From an uncultured Mollicutes bacterium (lineage in GTDB: Bacteria; Bacillota_I; Bacilli_A; RF39; UBA660), in contig CANTCS010000002.1 in assembly GCA_947652375.1 (NCBI GenBank), forward strand, positions 15,080 to 79,079: 64,000 nucleotides of DNA, read 5' to 3'. Below the pieces are notes generated by a model. It had not been told where the DNA came from, made no database searches, and was given only the letters and a program-made list of their open reading frames with translations. Shown in pieces: positions 14,880 through 56,094 of the stretch. The stretch's first letter is position 1. Each line of letters starts with the position of its first letter. The translations under genes were made by a program, and so were the position numbers.

Positions 14880-15282
14880 CTTCCCATATTATTTTAAATA
14901 TTTCTATTAAACGTATTTTTTTCGTTTTTATAGAAATATTTATTAAATCATTTACTTTATATTTTTTATCAAATTTAACATTTATTATTAATTCATAATA
15001 TTTCTTTTTTTCTTTTGTCATTACTACACCCTTATCTTCAACTAATTTAAATTTTACTTTCTTTGAATCAATATAAAAAAATGTATTATTATTTATGTTC
15101 TTTCTTTCTGTATCACTAGCTACTACTATTATTAAATTATCTTTTAAAACAATACCTGATAATTTTTCATAATGATATTCTTTTGAAATAAAAAGATAAG
15201 TTATAAATAATGCTTCTACTATTAGGAAAATAAGACTAAAAAATATTATTAATTCTTTTTTTTCATAATTTTTAATTTTCAA
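14872..15282 (-). CDS. short single-TM accessory protein of the bacteriocin exporter (truncated HlyD-like)
   Basis: 136 aa with an N-terminal TM followed by a beta-rich domain. It overlaps the ABC gene stop and sits between the exporter and the peptides. Confidence 0.5.
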   Translation of the reverse strand: MKIKNYEKKELIIFFSLIFLIVEALFITYLFISKEYHYEKLSGIVLKDNLIIVVASDTERKNINNNTFFYIDSKKVKFKLVEDKGVVMTKEKKKYYELIINVKFDKKYKVNDLINISIKTKKIRLIEIFKIIWEGD

Positions 15283-17359
15283 TTATAACTCCATTTTCGA
15301 GTTTTAAAACTCTATCATATAATTTTTTATTATTAAAACGATGAGAAATTACAATAATAGACTTATCTTTTAAATAATTAAATATATTAGTAAGAATTTT
15401 CTTTTCTCTATTAATGTCAATTTGCCCTAATGCTTCATCAAAAATATATATGTTACTTTTTCGTAATAGACTTCTTGCAAGAATAATCCTTTGTCTTTCA
15501 CCATTACTAAGATTAAAACCATTTTCTTCAACAATTTTTTCATATTTCGTGTCATAATTTTTTATAATATCATCTACTAAACAAATTTCGCATACTTTAT
15601 AAAAATCTTCTTCTTTAATATTATTAGATAGCATTATATTATTCTTTATAGTATCATTAAACAAATATTCATTGCTTGTTGTATAAGTAATATTATTTCT
15701 TAAATTTTCTAAATGATAATGGTTAATATCTATATTTGATATTTTTATGTGTCCATATGCTATATCAATATAACGCATAAGCATTTTCACAAGTGTACTT
15801 TTTCCTGAGCCACTATCTCCAAAAAGTAAAACTTTCTCTCCTTTATTGATTTGTAAATTAAGATTATTGAATAGTTTTTTAGAACTTATCTTATAATTAA
15901 GATTTGATATTATAATATCTCCATTTAAATTATAAGGTAAATAGAAATAGTTGTTTTTAAATATCTCTTCATTAATTAAAAACAATTCTTCAACTCTCTT
16001 AAACGCTATTTTAAAAGAACTAAAATTATCTAATAAATTGATTAAATTAGAAAAGCAATTTAAAAAGTAAGAAAAAAACAATTGATATACAATAAGATTA
16101 CTTAAACTTATTTTAGTTGTAACAACAAAATAACTTCCTAAACCATATATAAAAATATGGATTAAATCAGTTAAATTATTTTTTATAAAAATAGATAACT
16201 CAACTATAAAATTATAATTATAAATTTCTGATAAAAAATTCTTATATTGTAGAGAAAATCTATCAATAAGTTTTTTTTCTAAATGACTACCTTTAATAGT
16301 ATCTACATTACTAATTCCTTCAATTAAAAAAGAATTGATTTTATCTTCATATTTACTTAATTTTATATTACTTTTCTTTCTTTTTATACTAAAGAAAAAA
16401 GTATTAATAAGAAGTAATGCTGAGATTATCCAAATTATTAAAGTTAATTTTTTATTAAAATGAAGCATTATTATACTAAAGATTATTATAGTAATAAGAT
16501 CAGTCGATAATATTGTAAAAAGATTAGCAAGATAAATTCTAACTGTATTGAGATCTTTAAATCTTGCGACTACTTCTCCAGAAGTTCTATTTTTAAAATA
16601 TAAATATGGAAGTAAAAGTACTTGTTTAAATGTTTTACTTGTTGTTTCATAATCAAAAGAAAAAGTCCATTTATTCATTAAAAGATTTTTAATTAAATTA
16701 CTTATATTTTTCAGAATATAAATGATTAAAAGTATTGTGCTTATTATAAAAATGTTATTTGTAATACTATATTTTATTGAGAATTCAAGAAGGTATTTAA
16801 AATGAAAAGAAATTAAAATGTTTAATATAAAATAAGAGAGTGTTAAAATAAAAATTAAAAATATTACTGATTTATTTGTAGCAATTACATTTTTAATATT
16901 TTTATAAATTACATTTTTATTTTGTAATTTAGGCAATTTTTTCACAGGATGTAAGAATAAGTAATTACCACTGGATAATAAATTAAATTCTGAAAAAGAG
17001 ATTATTTTTTTTCCTTTAGCTGGATCCATTAAATGAATAAGATTTTTCTTTACATTAATTTTATAGAGAACTACAAAATGTTTATAGCTTTTATTAACAA
17101 TGAAATGAACTATACATGGTAAGTTATTTACATTTATATCTTCTAATTTTCCTGTTAATCCTTGTGCTTCAAAGCCAATAAGTTTTGCACCTTCTATTAA
17201 ATTATAAAAAGATGTCCCATCTTTAGTAGTATAAGTTATTTCTCTTAAATATTCTTTAGATACTTCTCCCCCATAAAATCTAATTATAGATAAGAGACAA
17301 CATATTCCACAATCTTTGATACCATCTTGTAAAACAACTTTCACTTGTTGTACTTTCAC
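15272..17359 (-). CDS. peptidase C39 domain-containing bacteriocin ABC exporter
   Basis: N-terminal QDGIKDCGICCL (C39 catalytic Cys), a six-TM core, Walker A GDSGSGKST, signature LSNGERQR, and Walker B IYIFDEA. Confidence 0.9.
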   Translation of the reverse strand: MKVQQVKVVLQDGIKDCGICCLLSIIRFYGGEVSKEYLREITYTTKDGTSFYNLIEGAKLIGFEAQGLTGKLEDINVNNLPCIVHFIVNKSYKHFVVLYKINVKKNLIHLMDPAKGKKIISFSEFNLLSSGNYLFLHPVKKLPKLQNKNVIYKNIKNVIATNKSVIFLIFILTLSYFILNILISFHFKYLLEFSIKYSITNNIFIISTILLIIYILKNISNLIKNLLMNKWTFSFDYETTSKTFKQVLLLPYLYFKNRTSGEVVARFKDLNTVRIYLANLFTILSTDLITIIIFSIIMLHFNKKLTLIIWIISALLLINTFFFSIKRKKSNIKLSKYEDKINSFLIEGISNVDTIKGSHLEKKLIDRFSLQYKNFLSEIYNYNFIVELSIFIKNNLTDLIHIFIYGLGSYFVVTTKISLSNLIVYQLFFSYFLNCFSNLINLLDNFSSFKIAFKRVEELFLINEEIFKNNYFYLPYNLNGDIIISNLNYKISSKKLFNNLNLQINKGEKVLLFGDSGSGKSTLVKMLMRYIDIAYGHIKISNIDINHYHLENLRNNITYTTSNEYLFNDTIKNNIMLSNNIKEEDFYKVCEICLVDDIIKNYDTKYEKIVEENGFNLSNGERQRIILARSLLRKSNIYIFDEALGQIDINREKKILTNIFNYLKDKSIIVISHRFNNKKLYDRVLKLENGVIIEN

Positions 17360-27731: not shown

Positions 27732-30143
27732 TTAATTTTCTTCTAAATCTAATTCAATTTTATTTACATTATATTCTTTTGTAGTTTGACTCATTTCCAA
27801 TTTTTGAATACTCAATGTTGCCTTAAAATCTTTAATAGATTTGTTTATTGCTTCAGCTAATTCTTCATTTACGCTTAATTCTAAACTCTTAATTGGTGTT
27901 TTAAGAGAAACATTATTATTAGTTTTTTCTCCCCTAGCTTGACTAATTATACCAATTATAATATCACCATTTTTAATTTCATTTGTAAAATCAAAATTTA
28001 ACGGTTTTATTTCTGTTAAATGGATAGATTTTTCATTATGATATATCTCTTGATAGATTTCTTCGGTAATAAAAGGGAAAAAAATGCTGAAATCTTGAAG
28101 TAGTTTATATAATAATTTGTAAACTGTCTTTTGTCCTGAATATCTTGGAACTTCTCCGAATTCCTCAGGTCTATATAATCTGTGTTTAACAATTTCAATA
28201 TAATTATCACAGAAATTCCAGAAAAATTTTTCTAAGTGGTTTAATGCTAATCCTACTTCATATTCATCAAGATATTTTATAAAACCTGATTCCATTTCTT
28301 GATATTTACCCAATATCCATTTATCAATATATTCATATTCATTGAATTCTTTATCTTCATAATCTGCTAAGTGCATTTCTATAAACTTAGCAACATTCCA
28401 TAATTTATTTACCAATTTACGTCCTCTAAGAAGAGTCTCCTCACTAAATACTATATCTGTCCCAAGTCTTCCAGATCCAGCCCAATAACGAATTACATCA
28501 GCTGAATATTGATTAATTAAATCAATTGGTTCTATTTTACTATTTCCTTTGCTTTTACTTATCTTTTCACCTTTATTAGCCATAACGAAACCTGAAATCA
28601 TTACATTATCCCATGGACGAGTTCCAAAATGATAAAAACTTTTAACAATAGTATAAAAATCCCAAGTTCTAATTATTTCTGAAGCATTTGTTCTAATACT
28701 CATTGGTTTTAAGAAAGATTCATAATTTTCTTTCTCACCATATCTCATATTAATAAGCGGTGTTACTGATGAAGTTGCCCATGTATCCATTACATCAGTT
28801 TCTGGTATAAATTCAGTGCATCCACATTTACAAGATTCGTGAGGTTTATCTACTAATGGATTAACTGGTAAATCTATAACCCTCGCAAATATAGAATCAC
28901 CACATTCTTTACAATACCAAACTGGAAAAGGTACGCCAAAATATCTTTGTCTTGAAATACACCAATCCCACATGATATTTTCTACCCACTCATTGTATCT
29001 ATTTTTCATGTGTCCTGGATACCATTTAATCTCTGAACCAATTTTTAAGAATTCCTCTTTATGATTCATAATATCTATAAACCATTGTTTCATTACAGAA
29101 TATTCTACTTCTTTGCCACATCTTTCATGTGTTTGAACTTCATGTTCTAATTCTTCGATTTTGACTACGAATCCACCTGCTTGTAAATCTTCTATGATTT
29201 GTTTTCTAGCTTCTTTAATCTTTAATCCACCATAATTTGGGACTTCATTGATAATTCTACCATTGTCAGTAAAAATATGTTTAAGTGGTAAATTATATTT
29301 TTTCCACCATTCTATATCTGTTTGATCTCCAAAAGTACAACACATAACTACTCCTGTCCCTTTATCTATTGCTACCTTTTCATCTGCCATAATTGGAACA
29401 CTCACATCTATAACCGGAATATGTGCTGTTTTGCCAATTAATGACTTGTGTACTTCATCATTAGGATTAACAAAAACACATACAATGGCTGGTAGTAATT
29501 CTGGTCTTGTAGTTGCTATTGTAAATTCTTCGCCATCTTCTTCAGTTTTAAAGTTGATATAGTTAAATGTTGTTTTAATTGTCTTTGTTTCAAGTTCAGC
29601 TTGTGCAATTGAAGTTAAGCATTCATTGCACCAAAGTGCTGGACTTTCTTTATGATAACAATATCCTTTATCAATCAAATCTAAAAATGATGCTTGACTA
29701 ATTTTAATTGTTGAGGGACTAACTGTTTTATAATGAATACCCCAATCTGTACTAACTCCCATTTTACTAAATAATTCTTCAAATTCGGCTTCATATTTAT
29801 CTGTTGTTTCATAGCACAATTTTGAAAATTCTTCTCTACCAATCTCATGTGCTTTTTTACCTTGTTCTTTTTCTACTAATCTTTCACTTGGTAAACCGTT
29901 ATCATCAAATCCAAACGGATAGAAAATATTAAATCCTCTTAATCTTTTATATCTCGCTATCATTTCAGTTTGAGAATATGAAAATATATGTCCAATATGA
30001 ATTTTACCATTAACTGTTGGTGGAGGAGTATCTATTGAAAATACTTCTCTCTCGTCTGGATTAAATTCATAAATTTTATTTTCTTTCCAATATTCTAACC
30101 ATTTTGTTTCTTTTTCTTGTGCGTTATATTTTTTATCTAACAT
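27732..30143 (-). CDS. valS: valine--tRNA ligase, short archaeal-like form
   Basis: Class Ia motifs PPPTVNGKIHIGH, TTRPE, DVMDTWATSS and KISKSKGN. It is 803 aa. A T-box leader with a GUA specifier lies upstream. Confidence 0.85.
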   Translation of the reverse strand: MLDKKYNAQEKETKWLEYWKENKIYEFNPDEREVFSIDTPPPTVNGKIHIGHIFSYSQTEMIARYKRLRGFNIFYPFGFDDNGLPSERLVEKEQGKKAHEIGREEFSKLCYETTDKYEAEFEELFSKMGVSTDWGIHYKTVSPSTIKISQASFLDLIDKGYCYHKESPALWCNECLTSIAQAELETKTIKTTFNYINFKTEEDGEEFTIATTRPELLPAIVCVFVNPNDEVHKSLIGKTAHIPVIDVSVPIMADEKVAIDKGTGVVMCCTFGDQTDIEWWKKYNLPLKHIFTDNGRIINEVPNYGGLKIKEARKQIIEDLQAGGFVVKIEELEHEVQTHERCGKEVEYSVMKQWFIDIMNHKEEFLKIGSEIKWYPGHMKNRYNEWVENIMWDWCISRQRYFGVPFPVWYCKECGDSIFARVIDLPVNPLVDKPHESCKCGCTEFIPETDVMDTWATSSVTPLINMRYGEKENYESFLKPMSIRTNASEIIRTWDFYTIVKSFYHFGTRPWDNVMISGFVMANKGEKISKSKGNSKIEPIDLINQYSADVIRYWAGSGRLGTDIVFSEETLLRGRKLVNKLWNVAKFIEMHLADYEDKEFNEYEYIDKWILGKYQEMESGFIKYLDEYEVGLALNHLEKFFWNFCDNYIEIVKHRLYRPEEFGEVPRYSGQKTVYKLLYKLLQDFSIFFPFITEEIYQEIYHNEKSIHLTEIKPLNFDFTNEIKNGDIIIGIISQARGEKTNNNVSLKTPIKSLELSVNEELAEAINKSIKDFKATLSIQKLEMSQTTKEYNVNKIELDLEEN

Positions 30144-30173: not shown

Positions 30174-30398
30174 AAAAAACAAGTCCTCCTAAAGGACGAA
30201 CTTGTCGTGGTACCACCTTAATTTCTATCTTATGATAGCTTGATATTTTTAACGGAATAATCCGGGATAACTTACTAATTTTTCAGAAATCATGCTCCTC
30301 TGCTACATTCAATATATTTTTATATTCATTCGCACCAAACATGAACTCTCTTTTATAATAAATATATTTACTCTTCAGATTCTTTGCATCTGCTTGTA
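30174..30398 (-). promoter_or_regulatory. T-box riboswitch leader (Val, specifier GUA) with terminator/antiterminator
   Basis: On the minus strand: promoter TTGAAA-17-TATAAT (30399-30427), Stem I with AGAGTA, distal AGAGAG and GGTGCGA, a specifier loop GAAT-GTA-G, the T-box sequence AATTAAGGTGGTACCACG (30206-30223), and a terminator hairpin at 30179-30205 followed by a T-run. Confidence 0.85.
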
Positions 30399-30697: not shown

Positions 30698-31134
30698 CTA
30701 TTTAGTCAATTTCATACTTTTAGGTTTTACCATTTGATAATGAAAATTAGTTTCGCCAGATTTCTCAAATCGTAATCTTTTATATAAAGTTTCCAACTGG
30801 GTTTTGCTTAAAATATTGTATTTCAATATTAGTATCAGAGTACTTTTCTAGCATATCTTTTAATATTTTAGTACCAATTCCCTTACCTTGATATTCAGGA
30901 ATAATACAAATATTTCCTATTTCGTAATTTCCATTTTCTAAACTTTCTCCATTATAAAATCCTATATCTTTATTATCATATTGTATTATATATTTCCAAA
31001 ATATTTTTGTTGAGTTTCTTCTTCCCATTTACCCCAACATTCTTCTACATATTTTTTATATGCATTCTTTTTTACTTCATAAACAAATTTATAACATTAA
31101 TAGTATATTTTCTTAATGTTACATATTCAATCAT
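30698..31134 (-). pseudogene. GNAT-family N-acetyltransferase, frameshifted
   Basis: Only an 82-aa internal ORF is in the track (30780..31028, with IIPEYQGKGIGTKIL). The N-terminal piece (MIEYVTL...VYEVKKNAYKKYVEECWGKWEEETQQKYF) and the C-terminal piece (YKRLRFEKSGETNFHYQMVKPK) are in other frames. Confidence 0.7.
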
Positions 31135-31303
31135 TATTTTACCTCTTCATTTAAGAATTAACTTTTACAAATATATTATATCATAAATCAATAATATGTA
31201 TATAATTTCAAATTTATTTATCTATTGATAATCATGTTACTATATTTGACTTTCTCTACGATTTAAGGATTTTTTTAGAAAACTTTTTATCTTTTAATAG
31301 AAA

Positions 31304-31326
31304 AGAAGATCGTTTATTGATCTTCT
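31304..31326 (-). terminator. intrinsic terminator ending the T7SS-like operon
   Basis: On the minus strand: AGAAGATC-AATAAAC-GATCTTCT followed by TTTC. It overlaps the stop codon of the DUF4176-like gene. Confidence 0.55.
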
Positions 31327-31664
31327 GGATTAATATTTTCTATTGTTTGAGCATTTATCATTTGTTCAATTCCGCCATTTAACACTTTAGATATTTCAAA
31401 ATATTTATCTGTTACATAACCTTTAAAACAGATCCTCTCTATTTGATCATGATTAAATGCAAATAGTTGATCACTTGTTACCATACCCTCTGGATAGAAG
31501 CAAGCTCCGTAATCAAACATTACTCCTTGAGCATCAACTTTTCCACTTTTGTCATAAACTTCACCATTTGGAATTATACAATAGCTAGTAATCATTAATT
31601 CTCTTTTACCGCCCTTTAATAAAACTACTGTTCCTATAGGTAAAAATCTTTCTTCATTCTCCAT
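31314..31664 (-). CDS. DUF4176-like protein (T7SSb-associated family)
   Basis: FLPIGTVVLLKGGKRELMITSY...FDYGACFYPEGMVTSDQLFAFNHDQIERICFKGY matches the DUF4176 pattern as I remember it. RBS AGGAGGA. Confidence 0.7.
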   Translation of the reverse strand: MENEERFLPIGTVVLLKGGKRELMITSYCIIPNGEVYDKSGKVDAQGVMFDYGACFYPEGMVTSDQLFAFNHDQIERICFKGYVTDKYFEISKVLNGGIEQMINAQTIENINPEDQ

Positions 31665-31678
31665 TTTTATCCTCCTTT

Positions 31679-34375
31679 TTATTGCAAATCAGCTAGTTCT
31701 TCATTATTTCTAGCATCATATTTTTCTGTCTGCTCTTCAGATTGATATCCATAATCATCATCGTCATCTAAATATGCTTCTGTGTCAGATGAATCATCAT
31801 AATCTAGATCAATTGTATCTTCTCCAGTCCACTCTTCTGTTTCGATTTCATCATCTTCGCCATTTTCATTATTATTTTTTCGATCCATATAAACTTTAGC
31901 TCCTATTCCTGCAGCTGCTGCGGCAGATAAACCAGCTATAACAGGAATTACTGTTCCTCCACTTCCAGATGATGTAGTTATAGGTTTAGTAGATGTTGGT
32001 ATTTTTGTGTATTTACTTCCTTTAATAACTTCATCTATCGATGTTGATGAATCGGATAACATATCATCTAAATCTGTAAAGTCTTCTGGATCATCTGTTA
32101 TGAAATCAAAATCATCATCATAATCTTGGTAACCGTTAGAGCCACTATATCCTCCACCTGTATGTTGAGTATTTTGTTCAGAATTGTTTATAGGTGGTTG
32201 TTGAGGTTCTGATGGTTGAGGTGCTGGTTGTGTTGGAGGCGTGTTATTTATATTGTTATCATTATTTGATGGTGGAGTGGTTGTATCTGTTGGTGGTTGT
32301 GGTGTTGGCTCTTTAGGTGGTTCTTCTTCTGGTTTTTTTGGTGGAAATGGGTCAATATCTTTTATTACTCTATTATCAGCAGAATTTTTTTCATCTTTTC
32401 CTTCAAGATCTTTAATTTTAAATTGTTTTTCACTTTTTTCTTCATTTGTATACGTTGAAGTTGGTGATGATGATGTTGTTGTTGGTGGTGATGGTGTACT
32501 TGTCGCTACTTTATTATTAGAAGTTTTAGCAACTGTTGGTGTACTTCTCTTACTACTTCCTACCCCATTTGAAACATTTTGTGGGGAAGTTGATGGTTGA
32601 GTTTGATTAATTTCTGTATTAACTGTTGGAGATTTTGGAACAGTGTATGTAATATTACTTTTTATAGATGTTGAATCTCCTATATCTTGATTAATTTGAG
32701 GTTTACTAGTAAATTGTGTTACTGCTTTTTCAATTGCACTTGATTTTTCACTTTGAATACTATTATATATTCTATTTCCTGACACGGCTGCAACTCCAGG
32801 TACTACAGAGGAACTTATTGCTCCTTTAGCAACTGTTTTAACTCCAGTTACAGCTTTTTCTGCTATTTGAACTGGAATTGTAACTGGTGCTTTAGCAACT
32901 TTACCAATGGTATTTCCTGCTCCTTTAACAATTTTAGAAATTTTATGATCTCCAGAAACAGTATTAGCGATATTAGTTTTAGTTTTAGAAATTGCATCAG
33001 TTGCTTTATTTTTTATAGTGGTTGTTGCTGTTTTAAAAGCATCTTTGCTACTAGTAGCAGCATTTTTGGCTGCTGTAGCTCCTGATTTATAGGCATTTTT
33101 TACTGTTGTTCCTGGATCTTTTATGGCTTTACCTACTTGTTTTGCGCCACTTACTACTTTATTTCCTGCAGATGCTGCTTTAGAACCCACTAATGAAATA
33201 CCAGCTTTAGCAGTTGATTTTAAACCATCTTGACTAATTTTTTGACTTATTTTTTGTCCAGCTTTATAGCTTGTTTTTGATATTACATCATTATAACCTT
33301 GAATATTAGATAAACTCTTTTGTCCATCGCTAATCATTTTATTAGCTCTAATTATATCATCTTGAGCTTTAGAAAAGGTATTTTTGGCCTTATCTATCAT
33401 TCCTTGAGTAAATTCAGGATTAACCATATCTTTTCCAGCTTGTTCTAAAGTTGCTTCTGCTTGTTCTTTTAATTGTGTTCCTTGTTTTATTTGCTCTTTA
33501 TATGGCTTTGCCGCATTTTTTTCTCCTAATTTACCAAAACCATAAGCAATTGCTCCTTGAACAGCTCCTTGTTTAGCTCCACTTAATGCTGCATCATCAA
33601 AGGACATTCCTTGTCTTAAACCAGATTCAGTTCCACTACCCATTCCCATCAATACAGCGGCTGTTGTATTAGCTCTTGTTGTATTTCCAATTAAAATGTT
33701 AGCAGCTTTAGCGGCTTTTCCTCCTTTTGAAGCTAGACCTACTCCACTTGCTGCTCCAGCTGTTGCAGCTGTAATAGCTAATGTTCCAGTAATTGCTCCA
33801 CTGATTTTAATAGCTCCAGCTAATTTACTATCTTCTGTAAATGCTGATTTTTTGGCAATATCACTTTCATAATAAAAGTTAAAAGCATCATGTGACCATT
33901 CTTTTTTAACAAAATTAGAACAAGCATTTTCTAATCCACTATCTTTTGGAGCAATCCACCCCACAATTGATACAGCTCCATCACCGATGTCTTCAAAAAC
34001 AGATAAAATTCCTTCTCCAAGCTTAGATCCTCCCATTAAAAATGAGCTTCCTGCTTTTTCCCACCATGCTGCTGATTCATATTCTTTAATATCGTTTGCT
34101 TTATTTTGTATTTGTTTACTTATATCTTCTATTGCTGTTGAGATATTATCAAAAAGAGCATCAAAGGCTGCAAAATCAATACTGCCTACATATTGAGATA
34201 AACCGTTAACGTTATTTAATTTTTTTATGGCTTCATTTACTACTGCTCTTGCTTCTTCAATTTCACCAGTACGAATTTTTTGTATTTCAGATACTACAAG
34301 ATCGACTTTTTCAAAATTAGCATAAACGTCAGCTTCCTTTTCATCTCGACCTGTTAACCAACTAACAAATCCCAT
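31679..34375 (-). CDS. 898-aa putative T7SS substrate/effector. It has an N-terminal helical domain, a PT-TG-like motif, Gly/Ala zipper segments, Lys/Ala/Thr repeats, a Pro/Thr-rich spacer, a C-terminal TM and an acidic tail.
   Basis: Track ORF with RBS GGAGAG. There is no Sec signal peptide. Motifs are described in the findings. Confidence 0.6.
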   Translation of the reverse strand: MGFVSWLTGRDEKEADVYANFEKVDLVVSEIQKIRTGEIEEARAVVNEAIKKLNNVNGLSQYVGSIDFAAFDALFDNISTAIEDISKQIQNKANDIKEYESAAWWEKAGSSFLMGGSKLGEGILSVFEDIGDGAVSIVGWIAPKDSGLENACSNFVKKEWSHDAFNFYYESDIAKKSAFTEDSKLAGAIKISGAITGTLAITAATAGAASGVGLASKGGKAAKAANILIGNTTRANTTAAVLMGMGSGTESGLRQGMSFDDAALSGAKQGAVQGAIAYGFGKLGEKNAAKPYKEQIKQGTQLKEQAEATLEQAGKDMVNPEFTQGMIDKAKNTFSKAQDDIIRANKMISDGQKSLSNIQGYNDVISKTSYKAGQKISQKISQDGLKSTAKAGISLVGSKAASAGNKVVSGAKQVGKAIKDPGTTVKNAYKSGATAAKNAATSSKDAFKTATTTIKNKATDAISKTKTNIANTVSGDHKISKIVKGAGNTIGKVAKAPVTIPVQIAEKAVTGVKTVAKGAISSSVVPGVAAVSGNRIYNSIQSEKSSAIEKAVTQFTSKPQINQDIGDSTSIKSNITYTVPKSPTVNTEINQTQPSTSPQNVSNGVGSSKRSTPTVAKTSNNKVATSTPSPPTTTSSSPTSTYTNEEKSEKQFKIKDLEGKDEKNSADNRVIKDIDPFPPKKPEEEPPKEPTPQPPTDTTTPPSNNDNNINNTPPTQPAPQPSEPQQPPINNSEQNTQHTGGGYSGSNGYQDYDDDFDFITDDPEDFTDLDDMLSDSSTSIDEVIKGSKYTKIPTSTKPITTSSGSGGTVIPVIAGLSAAAAAGIGAKVYMDRKNNNENGEDDEIETEEWTGEDTIDLDYDDSSDTEAYLDDDDDYGYQSEEQTEKYDARNNEELADLQ

Positions 34376-34390
34376 AATTAACTCTCCTTT

Positions 34391-34801
34391 CTATCCCTCT
34401 ATTACTTGTCCACCAGCGCCTGATGCTGTTGCATTGGCAGTACTATAAGCTTCTTCATTAGCTTTTATTTGTAATTCATCATGAGCTTTTACTGATTCGC
34501 CATAAATACTACTAATGCTTTCTAAAATAGTATTTGGAACTTGTTTTAATTCTTTACATATATCATCAATTGTTTGAGTCATTTTAGTTCCTTCGACAAT
34601 GATGGCATCTTCTGCATCTAATTTTATATAAGTAATAGCATTTATAATATTTTTAATTTCTTCTTCCGCTTTATTTTTTACATTATCAATAGCTTCTTGG
34701 ACTTTGGAAGGATTAATTAAACTATTTGCATCTTGTGCTGTAACTGCACAAATATTTTGACCTTCACTATCAGTAGCTATATATACTTTTGGTACCTCCA
34801 T
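34391..34801 (-). CDS. 136-aa helical accessory protein of the T7SS-like operon
   Basis: I chose the start at MEVPKVYIATD (RBS AAGGGAGAG), internal to track ORF 34391..34828. The protein is predicted mostly helical and has an Ala/Gly-rich C-terminus. Confidence 0.55.
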   Translation of the reverse strand: MEVPKVYIATDSEGQNICAVTAQDANSLINPSKVQEAIDNVKNKAEEEIKNIINAITYIKLDAEDAIIVEGTKMTQTIDDICKELKQVPNTILESISSIYGESVKAHDELQIKANEEAYSTANATASGAGGQVIEG

Positions 34802-34894: not shown

Positions 34895-35173
34895 TTATCC
34901 TTGTTCTCTATCATATTGTAAAGCTTTTTCAACAGCTAATCTTAAATTTGTTGCAGATAATTTCATATCTTCCATAGCAGCTGGAACATCAGCGCTATAA
35001 TATGATTCCCAATTTTCTCTAACTGTTTCAGACCATGTAGTTTGAATTCCAGCTGGAATTGTTTGTTTAATTGCTGTATTTAAAGTTTCCATTGATTCTT
35101 GCATACTTTGTACTAAGCTATCAATTTGTGCAGCATCATCTGTTGCAGCACCTGGATTTATTGTAACATTCAT
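34895..35173 (-). CDS. WXG100/Lap-like small helical protein (92 aa)
   Basis: A helix-turn-helix layout is predicted by eye. There is a central turn at IQTTWSE and a YYSAD (YxxxD) motif. RBS AAAGGAG. Confidence 0.6.
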   Translation of the reverse strand: MNVTINPGAATDDAAQIDSLVQSMQESMETLNTAIKQTIPAGIQTTWSETVRENWESYYSADVPAAMEDMKLSATNLRLAVEKALQYDREQG

Positions 35174-35206: not shown

Positions 35207-35497
35207 TTAATGCATTCCTGATTTTAAATCTCCAATCATATTACCAAACTTAGTTGTTTGTAATCCCATATATCCTTCAGCTTCTTCAATAGTTTGAGTA
35301 ATTTTATTTAAAGTATCTTGTTTTGCTTGATATTTTGCTAATAAATCATTAGCAGGATCACCTTGAATATCACCACTTGTAATTTCTTGTATTAAATTTG
35401 TTAATCTTGCTAGACTTGATTTATACTCTTGTCCTGCAGTTTCTAATGCTTGCTTTAAGCTGTTTAATGCTGCTTCATCTACGTGAATTGTTGACAT
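35207..35497 (-). CDS. T7SS effector-partner-like small helical protein (96 aa; SACOL2603/DUF3130-like)
   Basis: I chose the start at MSTIHVDEAALNSLKQ (RBS AGGAGGTGA), internal to track ORF 35207..35593. Size and N-terminal pattern resemble the TIGR04197-type family, from memory. Confidence 0.55.
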   Translation of the reverse strand: MSTIHVDEAALNSLKQALETAGQEYKSSLARLTNLIQEITSGDIQGDPANDLLAKYQAKQDTLNKITQTIEEAEGYMGLQTTKFGNMIGDLKSGMH

Positions 35498-35702: not shown

Positions 35703-35728
35703 TATTAGAAACAGAAGAGGTGGATATT

Positions 35729-36118
35729 ATGAGTTCTAAAAATTGTATTTCTAATTTATTAAAGCTAATTTGTCTTTTACAAGATAATTCTACAAGTTCA
35801 TGTAATTTGGAGAATGGTTGTTCTAAACCTTATCTAGGCCCTAGCTCTAATAATGCTTGCTACAACACTAGAATTATTCAATTATATAGATGTAATGGTA
35901 CGTTAATGGAGACTACTTTTACATCTAATGAGGGTAATGTTCTTTCTACAAATTTCTATAGGGTAATGTCAGTTGATAATAATTGTTGTAAACTTTTATT
36001 AATTAATTATGATAATATAAGTGATACTTATAATTCTACTCGTCAATATATAACAGTTAATTTAGAATGTATTGGAGCAGTTAGATGTATCAGGGATGTT
36101 ACTGTTAATTGTTTATAG
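35729..36118 (+). CDS. CotZ/CotY-family Cys-rich spore coat/exosporium protein, paralog 1
   Basis: I chose the ATG behind AGAGGTGG; the track ORF starts at GTG 35720. The pattern C..N.L..I..LQ, YNTR.IQLY, FYRV.SVD..CC.L and VNLECIGAVRC matches B. subtilis CotZ/CotY as I recall them. Confidence 0.75.
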   Translation: MSSKNCISNLLKLICLLQDNSTSSCNLENGCSKPYLGPSSNNACYNTRIIQLYRCNGTLMETTFTSNEGNVLSTNFYRVMSVDNNCCKLLLINYDNISDTYNSTRQYITVNLECIGAVRCIRDVTVNCL

Positions 36119-36133
36119 AAAGGAGGTTTTAGT

Positions 36134-36544
36134 ATGAATTGTTCAGATAGTAAAAAAGATAAATGTTCTTCTTGCATATTTGATGTATTAAAGAAAATTT
36201 TAATACTTCAAAAACAAGACTTTGATAATGAAAACTATATTGGATGTGACAAGCCTTACTTAGGACCAGTTTGTAATAGTGTTTGCTATAATACAAGACC
36301 TATTCAACTATATAACTGTTGCAGTGGAACACCATGGAGTTTTACTTATACAGCTAATGGTGTAACTGGTACTAGTGATGTATTTAGAGTAGAATCTTTA
36401 GATGATTGTTGTTGTACATGTCGTATTCTTTATTTAGATGAAGCAACTAATAGTTATGTTGGAACTAATGAATTTGTAACAATTGATTTAAATTGTTGTG
36501 GTGCTGTAAGATGTTTAAATGATACATATATAGATTTATGCTAA
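36134..36544 (+). CDS. CotZ/CotY-family Cys-rich spore coat/exosporium protein, paralog 2
   Basis: It shares KPYLGP..N..CYNTR.IQLY, FRVESLDDCCCTCRIL and IDLNCCGAVRCL with the upstream paralog. RBS AAAGGAGG. Confidence 0.75.
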   Translation: MNCSDSKKDKCSSCIFDVLKKILILQKQDFDNENYIGCDKPYLGPVCNSVCYNTRPIQLYNCCSGTPWSFTYTANGVTGTSDVFRVESLDDCCCTCRILYLDEATNSYVGTNEFVTIDLNCCGAVRCLNDTYIDLC

Positions 36545-36546
36545 AT

Positions 36547-36575
36547 AAAAAAGCCTAATTATGGCTTTTTTATTT
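36547..36575. terminator. bidirectional intrinsic terminator
   Basis: AAAAGCC-TAATTAT-GGCTTTT with flanking A and T runs, between convergent genes. Confidence 0.65.
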
Positions 36576-36863
36576 TAATATTTCTAATGATAGTATATCT
36601 TCTATTTTAATAACTTCATTATCTAGTGTGACTAAGTTATTTTTAGTTTTACTAACTAAACTTGTTCTATATTCTTTATTATAAGTTCTTATTAATACAG
36701 GAATATTATAAGATGCACCAAGTCCATTAAAGATTTTTGTTATTTTCTCTTCTATAGAAAATTGATTGTTTCTTGGTAACTCATCATTTAAATAACAATA
36801 ATTTTTATTGTTTGTAATATTTTTATTTATTTCATTTTTATATAATTTAGGTAGTTTTTTCAT
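36570..36863 (-). CDS. hypothetical small protein
   Basis: 97-aa track ORF with an RBS. I recognise no family. Confidence 0.5.
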   Translation of the reverse strand: MKKLPKLYKNEINKNITNNKNYCYLNDELPRNNQFSIEEKITKIFNGLGASYNIPVLIRTYNKEYRTSLVSKTKNNLVTLDNEVIKIEDILSLEILK

Positions 36864-54057: not shown

Positions 54058-56094
54058 TTAATTTAATAATTCTGGCACTAATTGATTATTATTTTGTATT
54101 ATTTGAGGTTGGTTTGTAGGTTGTTGTCCTAGTGGTTGTTGAAATTGATTAATTGGTTGCTGTTGTAATTGTGTAGATGTTTGAATTGGTTGAATTAACG
54201 AACTAGGAGTTGTAGTAGAATTTAAGTTTTTAGCTGCTAATTGGACTTGTTGATTCATGATAGTATTAACATTATTTTGAGAATTTATAGTTGGTTGTTT
54301 AGTATTAACTGCAATAAGTCCACTAGCATCATACCAGACATTTTCTAAATTGACATTATTAGATAGTGGTCGAGGGTTAGGAATATCAATATACATTGAA
54401 GTTGGAACTTTAAAAGCTGTTCCAAAAGCAATACAATTACCAGGTTTAAGATTTTTTAATTGTAAAACTATTTCCGATGAAACATTTGGTACCATTTCTT
54501 TAATATATTTTAAATCTACTGGGTGTAATGTTCTTAAAATTATAAAATTAGCACATTGAGATATACAAGTATCAGAAAGTTCACTTGGTCGTTGAGTAAT
54601 TAATGCTAAAAACATACCATATTTACGTCCCTCTTTAGTAATTCGCTCAAAAATATTATAACCTAATAAGTTAACATCACTATCACGTTGAACATAACGA
54701 TGGGCTTCTTCAATAATTATATGAAAAGCTCTACTACCTCGTGGTTTTGTTTCACTTGCTTTAAGAAAAAGCATTCTCGATAAAATTTTAGTTATTACTT
54801 TAGCTAAGCGATCATCAATGTAATTTATATTAAAATTCACTATTTGAGCTTTACTATTAGTTTTTGAATCTAACAATAAAGTTTCAATGTATTGATCTCT
54901 TGTAACATATTTAGGATAGTTAAAATAGTGTCTATTTTCTCCTGTTGCTAAAGTATGTAGACGAACACTAATGACATTGGCATTGTCAAATACTTTATCA
55001 CTTTTTAAGATTCCTTCACTTATTAGAGCAAAATCCATCGCTTGTTCTAAATCTGATAAAGTATAATATGGGTTTAATTCATTTTTATCAATTTCTAATT
55101 GATCTTCGATAATATAACCTCTAGTAAACTCAACAACTAATTCCATTTCTTGCATCTTACCTGTTTTGTCCACATATAAGCACTGTTTAAGAGTTCTTAT
55201 ATAACCAGGTTGTACAATTTGGCTTTCTAAATTAAGTGATGGAGTATTAAATTTAGTTAAAACTCCAATAACTTGATCTCTTATTTTTGTAGAATCATTT
55301 CCACTTAAAAGAATATCTTGTAAGGCTTTAGCAATAATATCATTTTTTCTTTTGATAACTGCTTCGCTATTACCTGTTAAAATAGAAACTAATTTAAGAG
55401 TTTTTTCGATTATTGGTAGTTGAGAGGGAGAATTTGCATCTAAAAGAAGTGCTAAGTCATCAACATCTAATAACCAGATTGGAATACGTAAAATCTCACA
55501 TTCAGGATCGATAATATTAGTAGTATATGCTTTATAATTAAGTTTTGAATTCTTTTCATGAAGACTACCAAAGGCATGCGTATATTCGCCATAGGCATCA
55601 AAAAAGAAAAGTGATGCATTTACAGGAGGAACGGGACTACTAGTAAATAATTTTTGCAAAACAGAAGCAACTGTACAACTTTTTCCAGCTCCAGAATTTC
55701 CTAAAATTGCATAGTGGTTACTAAAAAAATCATTAATATTTACATTTATTTTGTAACCATCATAAATATTGCTTGTACCAAAATTTGTTTGGCCAAACGC
55801 TGTTTTTTGTTTACCAAAGAGTAATTCTAATTCTTCTATCTCAATAATTCTTATTTTAGATTTAAAAGATGGTTTAGAACTTGCACCAGGGATAAAAATA
55901 TTATCTTTAATTTCACCTACAACATTAGCAATCATTTTAGTCTGATTAACATTTGCTATTTCTGCAACTACTTTTTTATTGGACCCATCTTCAAAGATTA
56001 GATGAAGATTTACTAAATTTGGTTGTTCATTGATATTAATATTTAGTTTTATAATTACACTATTATCAATTATTTCTTCTATTTTACCTAGCAT
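54058..56094 (-). CDS. HerA/FtsK-superfamily ATPase (DUF87-like) with an N-terminal HAS-barrel-like domain and a Gln/Asn/Pro-rich tail
   Basis: Walker A GNSGAGKSCT, Walker B FHIIIEEAHRYV and ALITQRPSEL. The last ~90 residues are low complexity (QQPINQFQQPLGQQPTNQPQ). Confidence 0.75.
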   Translation of the reverse strand: MLGKIEEIIDNSVIIKLNININEQPNLVNLHLIFEDGSNKKVVAEIANVNQTKMIANVVGEIKDNIFIPGASSKPSFKSKIRIIEIEELELLFGKQKTAFGQTNFGTSNIYDGYKINVNINDFFSNHYAILGNSGAGKSCTVASVLQKLFTSSPVPPVNASLFFFDAYGEYTHAFGSLHEKNSKLNYKAYTTNIIDPECEILRIPIWLLDVDDLALLLDANSPSQLPIIEKTLKLVSILTGNSEAVIKRKNDIIAKALQDILLSGNDSTKIRDQVIGVLTKFNTPSLNLESQIVQPGYIRTLKQCLYVDKTGKMQEMELVVEFTRGYIIEDQLEIDKNELNPYYTLSDLEQAMDFALISEGILKSDKVFDNANVISVRLHTLATGENRHYFNYPKYVTRDQYIETLLLDSKTNSKAQIVNFNINYIDDRLAKVITKILSRMLFLKASETKPRGSRAFHIIIEEAHRYVQRDSDVNLLGYNIFERITKEGRKYGMFLALITQRPSELSDTCISQCANFIILRTLHPVDLKYIKEMVPNVSSEIVLQLKNLKPGNCIAFGTAFKVPTSMYIDIPNPRPLSNNVNLENVWYDASGLIAVNTKQPTINSQNNVNTIMNQQVQLAAKNLNSTTTPSSLIQPIQTSTQLQQQPINQFQQPLGQQPTNQPQIIQNNNQLVPELLN

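Follow-up and report, generated by a model that had tools for sequence, protein, structure and literature searches.

The locus and the layout of the 898-aa protein

The window analysed here, a 64,000-nucleotide (nt) stretch of contig CANTCS010000002.1 from an uncultured Mollicutes bacterium, has a G+C content of approximately 24% and carries sporulation and housekeeping genes. An open reading frame (ORF) with an ATG start at positions 31679..34375 encodes a protein of 898 amino acids (aa), whose sequence suggests a toxin-type trafficking module at one end and a membrane anchor at the other. It lies on the reverse strand, as do all genes of its operon. Three small genes precede this large gene and a DUF4176 gene follows it. 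The order small genes 1, 2, and 3 (~96, ~92, and ~135 aa), large gene, and DUF4176 was found in about 30 loci, and some loci held additional large-gene/DUF4176 pairs downstream.

The eight-item layout that an earlier note had read from the ORF proved correct region by region. Residues 1-286 (33518..34375) form the N-terminal module, a putative trafficking module shared with ADP-ribosyltransferase (ART) and EndoU toxins, and residues 287-356 (33308..33517) form two long helices completing a predicted head. There follow a Lys/Ala/Thr/Ser-rich amphipathic helical region, a Pro/Thr/Ser/Asn-rich disordered linker, and a C-terminal module with a single transmembrane (TM) helix and an acidic tail. 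In the full-length AlphaFold2 (AF2) model, residues 1-356 made a confident all-helical head with a predicted local distance difference test (pLDDT) score of ~80-97, rising to 92-97 in residues 287-356. Beyond residue 356 came low-confidence helices, then the disordered linker and the TM helix, and last a tail that is disordered but for a short helix at its end. Such a layout is not the chance product of a single ORF: conservation is bipolar, and both ends were kept across 89 homologues of 700-1000 aa, none of which carries a name.

The N-terminal module is shared with toxins

No hydrophobic segment was present in residues 1-120, and AF2 predicted long helices at 21-54, 69-101, and 104-141 (pLDDT 78-89 in the full-length model), in agreement with a helical N-terminus devoid of a signal peptide. 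The module as a whole scored 78-91, except for a loop at about 201-230 (54-68). It is built of a helical hairpin with a YVG turn, an invariant K..EG..S..E...D core, and a Gly/Ala-rich amphipathic segment. The region 101-140 (AAWWEK...VGW) was the most conserved part of the family, with M114, K118, E121, G122, E128, D132, and G139 invariant among 44 aligned sequences; the invariant core of the module (residues 1 to ~290) further included S177, S183, G244, G246, and G266. The motif at 101-140 had been pointed out previously and is indeed present, but its suggested likeness to the pre-toxin TG (PT-TG) domain was not borne out, as neither PF14449 nor any other Pfam family matched it; membership in PF14449 was rejected for the query and for 44 relatives alike.

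The stretch 185-290 is rich in Ala (24%) and Gly (19%) and borderline hydrophobic (Kyte-Doolittle maximum of 1.4 at 183-217), and its glycines are conserved within the motif G-x-G-S-G-T-E-x-G-L. The stretch itself was read correctly, but the resemblance proposed for it, to the membrane-permeabilising regions of TspA and TelE, two type VII secretion system (T7SS) toxins, found support neither in sequence nor in fold in the Pfam, PDB, and Foldseek searches.

Two relatives carry the module on toxins. P0086 was 42% identical over residues 1-286 (E 1e-66); its remainder is an ADP-ribosyltransferase (ADPrib_exo_Tox, PF03496), and downstream of its gene lie a 99-aa gene and then an ADP-ribosylglycohydrolase gene. 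P0162 was 44% identical over residues 1-277 (E 2e-61) and has a bacterial EndoU nuclease domain at its C-terminus (PF14436; E 5.5e-5, slightly below the cut-off). In locus L053 (1180-4778), the gene for P0162 is followed by a 143-aa gene and then by that of RtcB, an RNA ligase which reseals 2',3'-cyclic-phosphate ends and might possibly serve here as a repair-type immunity against the EndoU toxin. This toxin cassette is located between CotZ and the small-gene/large-gene operon of the same locus, which encodes a 947-aa anchored homologue. Other non-anchored members of the family have globular ends without assignment, and a small gene follows each of them. Since one module is joined to several toxin ends, each with immunity-type neighbours, residues 1-286 behave, as far as sequence comparison can tell, as a polymorphic-toxin trafficking or delivery domain. 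The T7SS-like targeting end postulated in the earlier note thus gained support from these toxin N-termini, as well as from the WXG100-like and DUF4176/Ltc neighbours in about 30 loci. By eye only, the C-terminal end of a more distant relative looks transglutaminase-type.

The C-terminal anchor cassette

The acidic patch, the single TM helix, and the poly-acidic tail described previously were all recovered. Residues 741-807 (31955..32155), with a net charge of -11, hold the HTGGGYSG..GY motif, the acidic patch, and the juxtamembrane motif SIDEVIKGSKYTKIPTSTKPI. The TM helix VIPVIAGLSAAAAAGIGAKVY at residues 808-829 (31889..31954), recognised by Kyte-Doolittle hydropathy (1.79) and conservation, is the only strong TM segment of the protein. 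G815, A819, and G823 make up its small-residue face, and K-x-Y-M-D-R-K comes after it. Positions P811 and G815 do not vary in the family, and A819, A821, A822, G823, K827, and K833 are conserved in at least 90% of sequences. The 69-residue tail (830-898; 31682..31888), defined by composition and conservation, contains 23% Asp and 19% Glu and has a net charge of -25. The motifs EEW.G.D, YLDDDDDY.YQ, and the terminal KY.AR..EELADLQ are conserved in it, and a peptide of the tail reads …KYDARNNEELADLQ. In the family the order of the elements is HTGGGYSG, SIDxxIKGxKYTKIPTSxKPI, VIPIAAGLSAAAAAGIGAKAYMDRKxNN, and then the acidic tail ending in Y.AR..EELADLQ.

Of the 196 family members no shorter than 450 aa, 173 (88%) end in a hydrophobic helix and an acidic tail, and the tails of these 173 homologues have a median length of 74 aa and a median net charge of -21. 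The C-terminal TM helix and acidic tail thus constitute a conserved module. The module, including its juxtamembrane motif, was also found on proteins with unrelated helical N-termini, namely on 484-536 aa proteins encoded beside two WXG100 genes, on the families f57, f76, and f11, and on enzyme-like proteins of loci L049 and L052. Nearly all of these carriers have small helical genes upstream and many have DUF4176 downstream. The search of the protein database with a C-module profile returned only short contig-edge fragments, uninformative on other N-termini.

The enzyme-like carriers (L049 4690-10513 and L052 8078-10294) are proteins of ~700 aa in which an enzyme-like N-terminal domain precedes an internal helical WXG-like segment and the anchor cassette. 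With small helical genes upstream, their arrangement is reminiscent of the 'reverse' T7SS lipase toxins, e.g., TslA.

The variable middle region and the linker

The region 291-560 is rich in Lys (15%) and Ala (13%), has a net charge of +23, and shows an alpha-helical amphipathic periodicity whose observed value was matched by 0.4% of shuffled sequences. The earlier note was right about its amphipathic, Lys/Ala-rich character but not about true repeats: the 'repeats' are compositional, and Tandem Repeats Finder (TRF) detected tiny arrays only. Its first part, residues 291-356, belongs to the confidently folded head (pLDDT 92-97), and residues 357-560 (32696..33307) were delimited by composition, periodicity, and low pLDDT. 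Among homologues the middle is free to vary in sequence, length, and repeat type, and the region 357-560 is swapped for other helical repeats, e.g., in P0050 and P0065.

Residues 561-740 (32156..32695) contain 16% Pro, 15% Thr, 12% Ser, and 11% Asn and were predicted by AF2 to be disordered; the earlier note had read a spacer here. In the 173 homologues ending in the anchor, the median fraction of Pro, Thr, Ser, Gly, Asn, and Gln over the 250 residues ahead of the TM helix was 0.64.

Tandem second copies of the large gene and DUF4176 were present within the same locus in L010, L013, L017, L025, L008, and L019. Some tandem copies are shortened to ~580-650 aa, having retained both conserved ends and lost the middle, which suggests that the stalk is dispensable for the role of the two ends.

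The small partner genes and DUF4176

Small gene 1 (35207..35497) encodes a WXG100-like helical hairpin of ~96 aa whose family occurs in 34 loci. The mechanical ORF extends to 35593; all homologues begin with MSTIHVDE, after a GGAGGTG Shine-Dalgarno sequence, and this sequence and the ATG at 35497 mark the true start. When aligned with PF06013 proteins of the same lineage, in which true WXG100 genes are present, it reached a probability of 81% in hhalign (E 1.2e-5), with I-x-G placed on the W-x-G turn; the turn of the protein itself is I-Q-G rather than W-x-G. The match to TIGR03930 (E 0.0032, 17.6 bits) remained below the cut-off of 44.85, and the PDB profile matches to EsxA (0.04) and LapA4 (0.077) were sub-significant.

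Small gene 2 (34895..35173) encodes a helical protein of 92 aa with a Trp in its turn (TTWSE), a candidate Lap-like partner. In all 33 loci of its family it was placed between small genes 1 and 3, and W47 is nearly invariant; no WXG100 profile match was detectable. Small gene 3 (34391..34801; mechanical ORF to 34828), located directly upstream of the large gene in 31 loci, encodes a helical protein of ~136 aa without a family match in Pfam, NCBIfam, or the PDB profile search and is a candidate third partner.

The DUF4176 gene (31314..31664) starts 14 nt past the stop codon of the large gene. Its product matched PF13780 with 79.3 bits (E 2.2e-22, cut-off 25) and, at 116 aa, belongs to the 'small' class of PMC12478183, as a predicted Ltc-type chaperone; the family was present in 38 loci, nearly always directly downstream of the large gene. 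An intrinsic-terminator-like hairpin with a T-run (31304..31326) at its stop codon marks the end of the operon.

DUF4176/Ltc proteins chaperone the LXG toxins of the T7SSb subtype, binding and stabilising them at an amphipathic, otherwise disordered middle segment, and small DUF4176 genes are typical of the loci for the membrane-depolarising toxins TspA and TelD (PMC12478183). Small WXG100-related genes beside a gene for a protein with a helical N-terminus are an accepted mark of T7SS substrates in all T7SS subtypes (PMC11217815). Judged by gene content and order, the five-gene operon is laid out like a T7SSb effector locus.

Family extent and searches for known relatives

The profile of the N-terminal 300 residues retrieved at least 482 cluster representatives at E≤1e-3, 215 of them at E≤1e-30, from 1.84 billion proteins clustered at 50% identity. 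All 51 genomic loci came from uncultured metagenome-assembled genomes (MAGs) whose labels read Bacilli, Erysipelotrichaceae, Mollicutes, or Bacillales and whose sources were rumen, sheep, goat, rabbit, mouse, and human gut; the family was seen only in such animal-gut Bacilli MAGs. Mouse-gut metagenomes also contain the sequence of the window itself; no RNA run was found to include the region. One to three copies of the large gene occupy a fixed core locus in essentially all genomes found.

Pfam and NCBIfam gave no match for the 898-aa protein, and Pfam gave a single match for 44 relatives, the ADP-ribosyltransferase domain of one of them. Membership in the LXG family was rejected because PF04740 matched neither the query at E≤1 nor the 44 relatives at E≤0.01, with no NCBIfam match either; N-module profiles did not match the PDB LXG chain 8gmh_B at E≤10. 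Membership among LPXTG sortase substrates was rejected likewise, on account of the missing signal peptide, the lack of an NCBIfam sorting-signal match, and the length and charge of the tail; the closest thing to LPXTG is KIPTSTKP, ~15 residues ahead of the helix. When alignments of the full length, the N-module, and the small proteins were compared as profiles with the PDB, only low-complexity or coiled-coil noise and the sub-threshold EsxA and LapA4 matches resulted, and Foldseek found nothing in the PDB at E≤0.001 for AF2 models of residues 1-300 and of the full length. Foldseek matches to the EsxA hairpin, F-BAR, and AhlB/SmhB had whole-domain TM-scores of 0.1-0.25 and are leads only. The hhalign comparison of the N-module with WXG100 placed YVG on the WxG turn with a probability of 9.8%, too weak for use.

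Hence, no full-length homology to a characterised family was found in Pfam, NCBIfam, or the PDB. The literature surveyed contained neither a T7SS substrate with a dedicated C-terminal anchor cassette nor a description of a T7SS for this lineage. The claim that the combination of parts is undescribed held for these databases and papers, but it is not wholly unprecedented in view of Staphylococcus aureus TspA.

Proposed export and membrane retention of the 898-aa protein

We consider that there is about an even chance that the 898-aa protein is a T7SS(b)-type substrate, exported N-terminus-out and kept by its C-terminal anchor on the cell that produces it. As judged from its sequences, the family is LXG-like yet distinct, with a new C-terminal anchor cassette. 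The sequences show the family, its two conserved ends, the operon, and the N-module on toxin domains; how the protein is exported, how it is oriented, and what it does at the surface are inferred. The favoured reading is supported by the N-module shared with toxins, the operon with WXG100-like and DUF4176 genes, the lack of a signal peptide, the anchor and acidic tail on most family members, the reuse of the C-module, and the lack of an immunity-type gene downstream of the anchored forms. Because a toxin-delivery N-module is combined with a conserved anchor and acidic tail, the protein is most likely tethered to the producer surface.

In the cytoplasm, the N-terminal helices (~20-141) would pair with the three small proteins encoded upstream, and the DUF4176/Ltc protein would shield an amphipathic or hydrophobic segment, the Gly/Ala stretch 185-290 being the likeliest candidate. 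Both steps are suggested by the conserved gene order and by the roles of Lap and Ltc proteins for LXG toxins. An EssC-type machine with its genes at another genomic site would export the complex. The C-terminal TM helix would then act as a stop-transfer anchor leaving the acidic tail of ~70 residues in the cytoplasm, and the 180-residue Pro/Thr linker would pass through the wall, with the conserved head and the variable amphipathic stalk displayed outside. The head, which relatives use for cytoplasm-acting toxins, might, speculatively, touch neighbouring cells. The N-out/C-in orientation is favoured because the N-module is of an exported nature, and because of the composition of the linker and the precedent of TspA. 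Ordinary tail-anchor insertion moves short tails. The 69-residue tail with its charge of -25 would poorly fit such insertion, which also favours the C-terminus inside.

Several observations weigh against the favoured reading. To our knowledge, no published account describes a T7SS releasing a TM helix sideways. The putative kinship of the N-module with LXG domains lacks sequence or structural proof: there was no sequence match to PF04740 or to any LXG or Lap structure in the PDB, and nothing significant in Foldseek. Neither EssC/TsxC nor EssB or YukD genes were found in the 64-kb window and the 51 related loci. The positive-inside rule is ambiguous, with one to three Lys/Arg residues on each side of the TM helix. 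Finally, the core-genome syntenic position beside spore-coat and SpoVE genes makes a housekeeping role possible.

The idea can be extended, although we regard the extension as tentative and somewhat doubtful, to a type VII-type pathway which, in an order-level lineage of gut Bacilli, would serve as a general route of surface display beyond toxin release, with the C-terminal cassette as a shared element. Proteins with WXG/LXG-like helical N-termini would be displayed N-terminus-out and held in the producer membrane by this cassette of juxtamembrane motif, Gly/Ala TM helix, and acidic tail ending in ELADLQ. The cassette would then be a stop-transfer anchor and possibly also a second signal, on the cytoplasmic side, for docking to the ATPase. 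The main core-genome cargo would be the 898-aa protein, possibly a stalk presenting toxins with the same N-module.

Among the rival explanations, it appears unlikely that the protein is an antibacterial toxin like TspA or TelE that is released to act on membranes, its TM helix or stretch 185-290 oligomerising in the target membrane and depolarising it. Such a toxin would account for the use of the N-module on toxins, for the small DUF4176 gene of the kind typical of TspA/TelD loci (PMC12478183), and for the conserved small-residue face G815/A819/G823 of the TM helix, given that TelE toxicity reportedly needs a C-terminal glycine zipper (PMC10434224). Weak, non-significant matches to ClyA/AhlB-type alpha-pore-forming proteins, obtained in both sequence and fold searches, point in the same direction. 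However, the ART and EndoU relatives do have immunity-type neighbours, whereas the anchored forms have no immunity candidate downstream, and no polytopic membrane gene was found there in the window, in L002 and L004, or in most other loci. The C-terminus is conserved like the N-terminus and reused, the opposite of a polymorphic toxin end, and the locus is core and syntenic across the whole lineage. Neither the -25 tail nor the 180-residue Pro/Thr linker would have a role in a pore.

We find it quite improbable that the protein is an unexported, N-in, membrane-tethered cytoplasmic scaffold, with Lys-rich helices coating the inner leaflet and a part in envelope or spore morphogenesis. The operon shows conserved synteny with CotZ, SpoVE/FtsW, PrsW, and GerM, a secretion ATPase was not found nearby in the window and the 51 loci, the amphipathic helical region is charged at +23, and the charges flanking the TM helix are ambiguous, all of which a scaffold would accommodate. 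On the other hand, the N-module on ART and EndoU toxins with immunity-type neighbours is sensible only for exported proteins, the partners are WXG100-like and DUF4176 proteins, and a scaffold would need its 69-residue, -25 tail moved across the membrane without a signal peptide. The insertion of the EndoU cassette between CotZ and the operon in L053 implies that the adjacency of CotZ reflects no functional coupling, so the sporulation link was down-weighted.

The notion of a structural part of the secretion apparatus like EsaA or TsdI, with a wall-spanning stalk, an acidic tail on the ATPase, and a head presenting or passing toxins, would suit the fixed core locus with one to three copies, the conserved extreme C-terminal peptide EELADLQ, the N-module toxin genes in the same locus, and the envelope-spanning accessory proteins known in T7SSb and T7SSd, but it is very unlikely, as nothing resembling EsaA, TsdI, or a T7SS core protein was detected in Pfam, NCBIfam, and PDB profile searches, no other machine genes are adjacent, and the presence of the anchor on several families (f11, f57, L035 type) looks like a set of substrates rather than a machine part.

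Substrates of the T7SSb are currently viewed as released small WXG100 proteins and LXG toxins. Should the 898-aa protein be exported and retained as favoured here, a family of this size (at least 482 clusters), with a toxin-trafficking module mostly joined to a conserved membrane anchor, would broaden the known scope of the pathway and raise the mechanistic question of sideways release of a TM helix by a T7SS. General display, if true, would involve a sorting signal and a topology class undescribed for any T7SS. The two un-annotated modules, the LXG-like N-module and the C-terminal cassette, may provide family models for hundreds of 'hypothetical proteins' of rumen, mouse, and human gut MAGs. 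They offer a testable handle on surface biology and interbacterial antagonism (ART, EndoU, and immunity or repair genes) in a lineage without a cultured model.

Comparison with known systems

The closest likeness is to the LXG toxins with Lap and Ltc proteins, such as TelA and TelB of Streptococcus intermedius (PMC12478183). Common features are a helical N-module of 200-300 residues without a signal peptide, a set of two or three preceding small genes related to WXG100, DUF4176 in the operon, an amphipathic middle segment, and relatives in which the same N-module is fused to ART or EndoU domains and accompanied by immunity genes. Unlike LXG toxins, the 898-aa protein has neither a PF04740 match nor an L-x-G motif, and its invariant core is K..EG..S..E...D. 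The DUF4176 gene, of the small type, here lies downstream of the large gene. The 898-aa protein and 88% of its family carry the TM anchor and acidic tail in place of a toxin domain, and no immunity gene.

S. aureus TspA, an LXG substrate, is found at the extracellular face of the producer membrane in an EssC-dependent manner (PMC7456083) and is, by analogy, the nearest functional precedent for surface retention. Both proteins have predicted TM segment(s) near the C-terminus, TspA as a T7SS substrate and the 898-aa protein as a putative one, and both have small DUF4176 genes in their loci. In contrast, TspA is a protein of 469 aa that is peripheral (urea-extractable), shed, and toxic, with polytopic DUF443 immunity genes (PMC7456083), whereas the 898-aa protein has a Pro/Thr linker, a conserved single TM helix, and the 69-residue acidic tail; no sequence similarity between the two was detected. 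TelE of Streptococcus gallolyticus is an LXG effector with a C-terminal glycine-zipper region (PMC10434224) and has co-expressed partners for its N-terminal, central, and C-terminal parts (bioRxiv 10.64898/2026.03.12.711312). It differs in being a released pore-former with TipE immunity and a six-TM partner, neither of which is present here, and it gave no sequence match.

The nearest conceptual parallel in topology, again by analogy, is that of Tat-dependent C-tail-anchored proteins (PMC10924467), which combine N-terminal targeting, transfer of a large domain by a specialised translocase, and a C-terminal TM anchor, but have a twin-arginine signal, another machine, and short tails. LPXTG surface proteins likewise have a Pro/Thr-rich wall-spanning linker followed by a C-terminal hydrophobic helix, but their Sec signal peptide, LPXTG directly before the helix, and short basic tail are all missing from the 898-aa protein. 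EsaA of T7SSb and TsdI of T7SSd (PMC11217815) resemble the protein described here in being large, elongated, and membrane-anchored, with a wall-spanning role proposed within a T7SS. They differ in that EsaA is polytopic, TsdI carries a Sec signal peptide together with Ig-like domains, and both are encoded in the core T7SS cluster; no similarity was detected.

Genomic neighbourhood

In the region at 35720-36544 (forward strand) and 36570-36863 (reverse strand), two tandem CotZ-family spore-coat genes are divergent from the operon and a conserved 97-aa gene is located between CotZ and SpoVE/FtsW. This order was retained in at least 27 related loci.

Neither the window nor any of the 51 loci yielded an FtsK/SpoIIIE-type multi-domain ATPase; the large ORFs checked for EssC were leucyl-tRNA synthetase (LeuRS), isoleucyl-tRNA synthetase (IleRS), DnaE, BipA, a vWA surface protein, and FtsK and HerA-type ATPases. 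In L035 (5099-10528; also in L032, L036, and L046), a HerA_C-type ATPase (PF05872, E 6e-186) is encoded directly upstream of two true WXG100 genes, which are followed by genes for a 518-aa protein, a 484-aa protein with the anchor cassette, and DUF4176. As an alternative motor this ATPase was set aside, since it lacks a TM segment and synteny is common to all four loci. Within the window, a 678-aa HerA/DUF87-type ATPase (PF01935, E 5e-20; 54058-56094, reverse strand) has neither a TM segment nor T7SS neighbours and lies upstream of IleRS and of ORFs that by eye resemble a SepF/DivIVA division cluster.

Downstream of DUF4176 the window contains the terminator, a GNAT pseudogene, a T-box, and LeuRS, and in L004 LeuRS directly follows DUF4176. 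The GNAT acetyltransferase gene (30780-31135, reverse strand) is seemingly broken by in-frame stops, leaving an 82-aa C-terminal ORF. Most related genomes have two other conserved genes at this position: f10, for a helical protein of ~168 aa, and f11, for one of ~280 aa that combines a helical N-terminus with a TM helix and an acidic tail. The T-box leader (RF00230, 128 bits; 30189-30393, reverse strand) upstream of LeuRS (27732-30143) points to ordinary tRNA-sensing regulation. The gene-poor gap between the operon and LeuRS also holds an Rfam 'ssNA-helicase RNA' motif (RF03070; 30625-30673, forward strand) with 45 bits against a gathering threshold of 41.5. Elsewhere in the window, an ABC transporter with an N-terminal C39 peptidase domain (15272-17359, reverse strand) is of the type that exports bacteriocins or double-glycine peptides.

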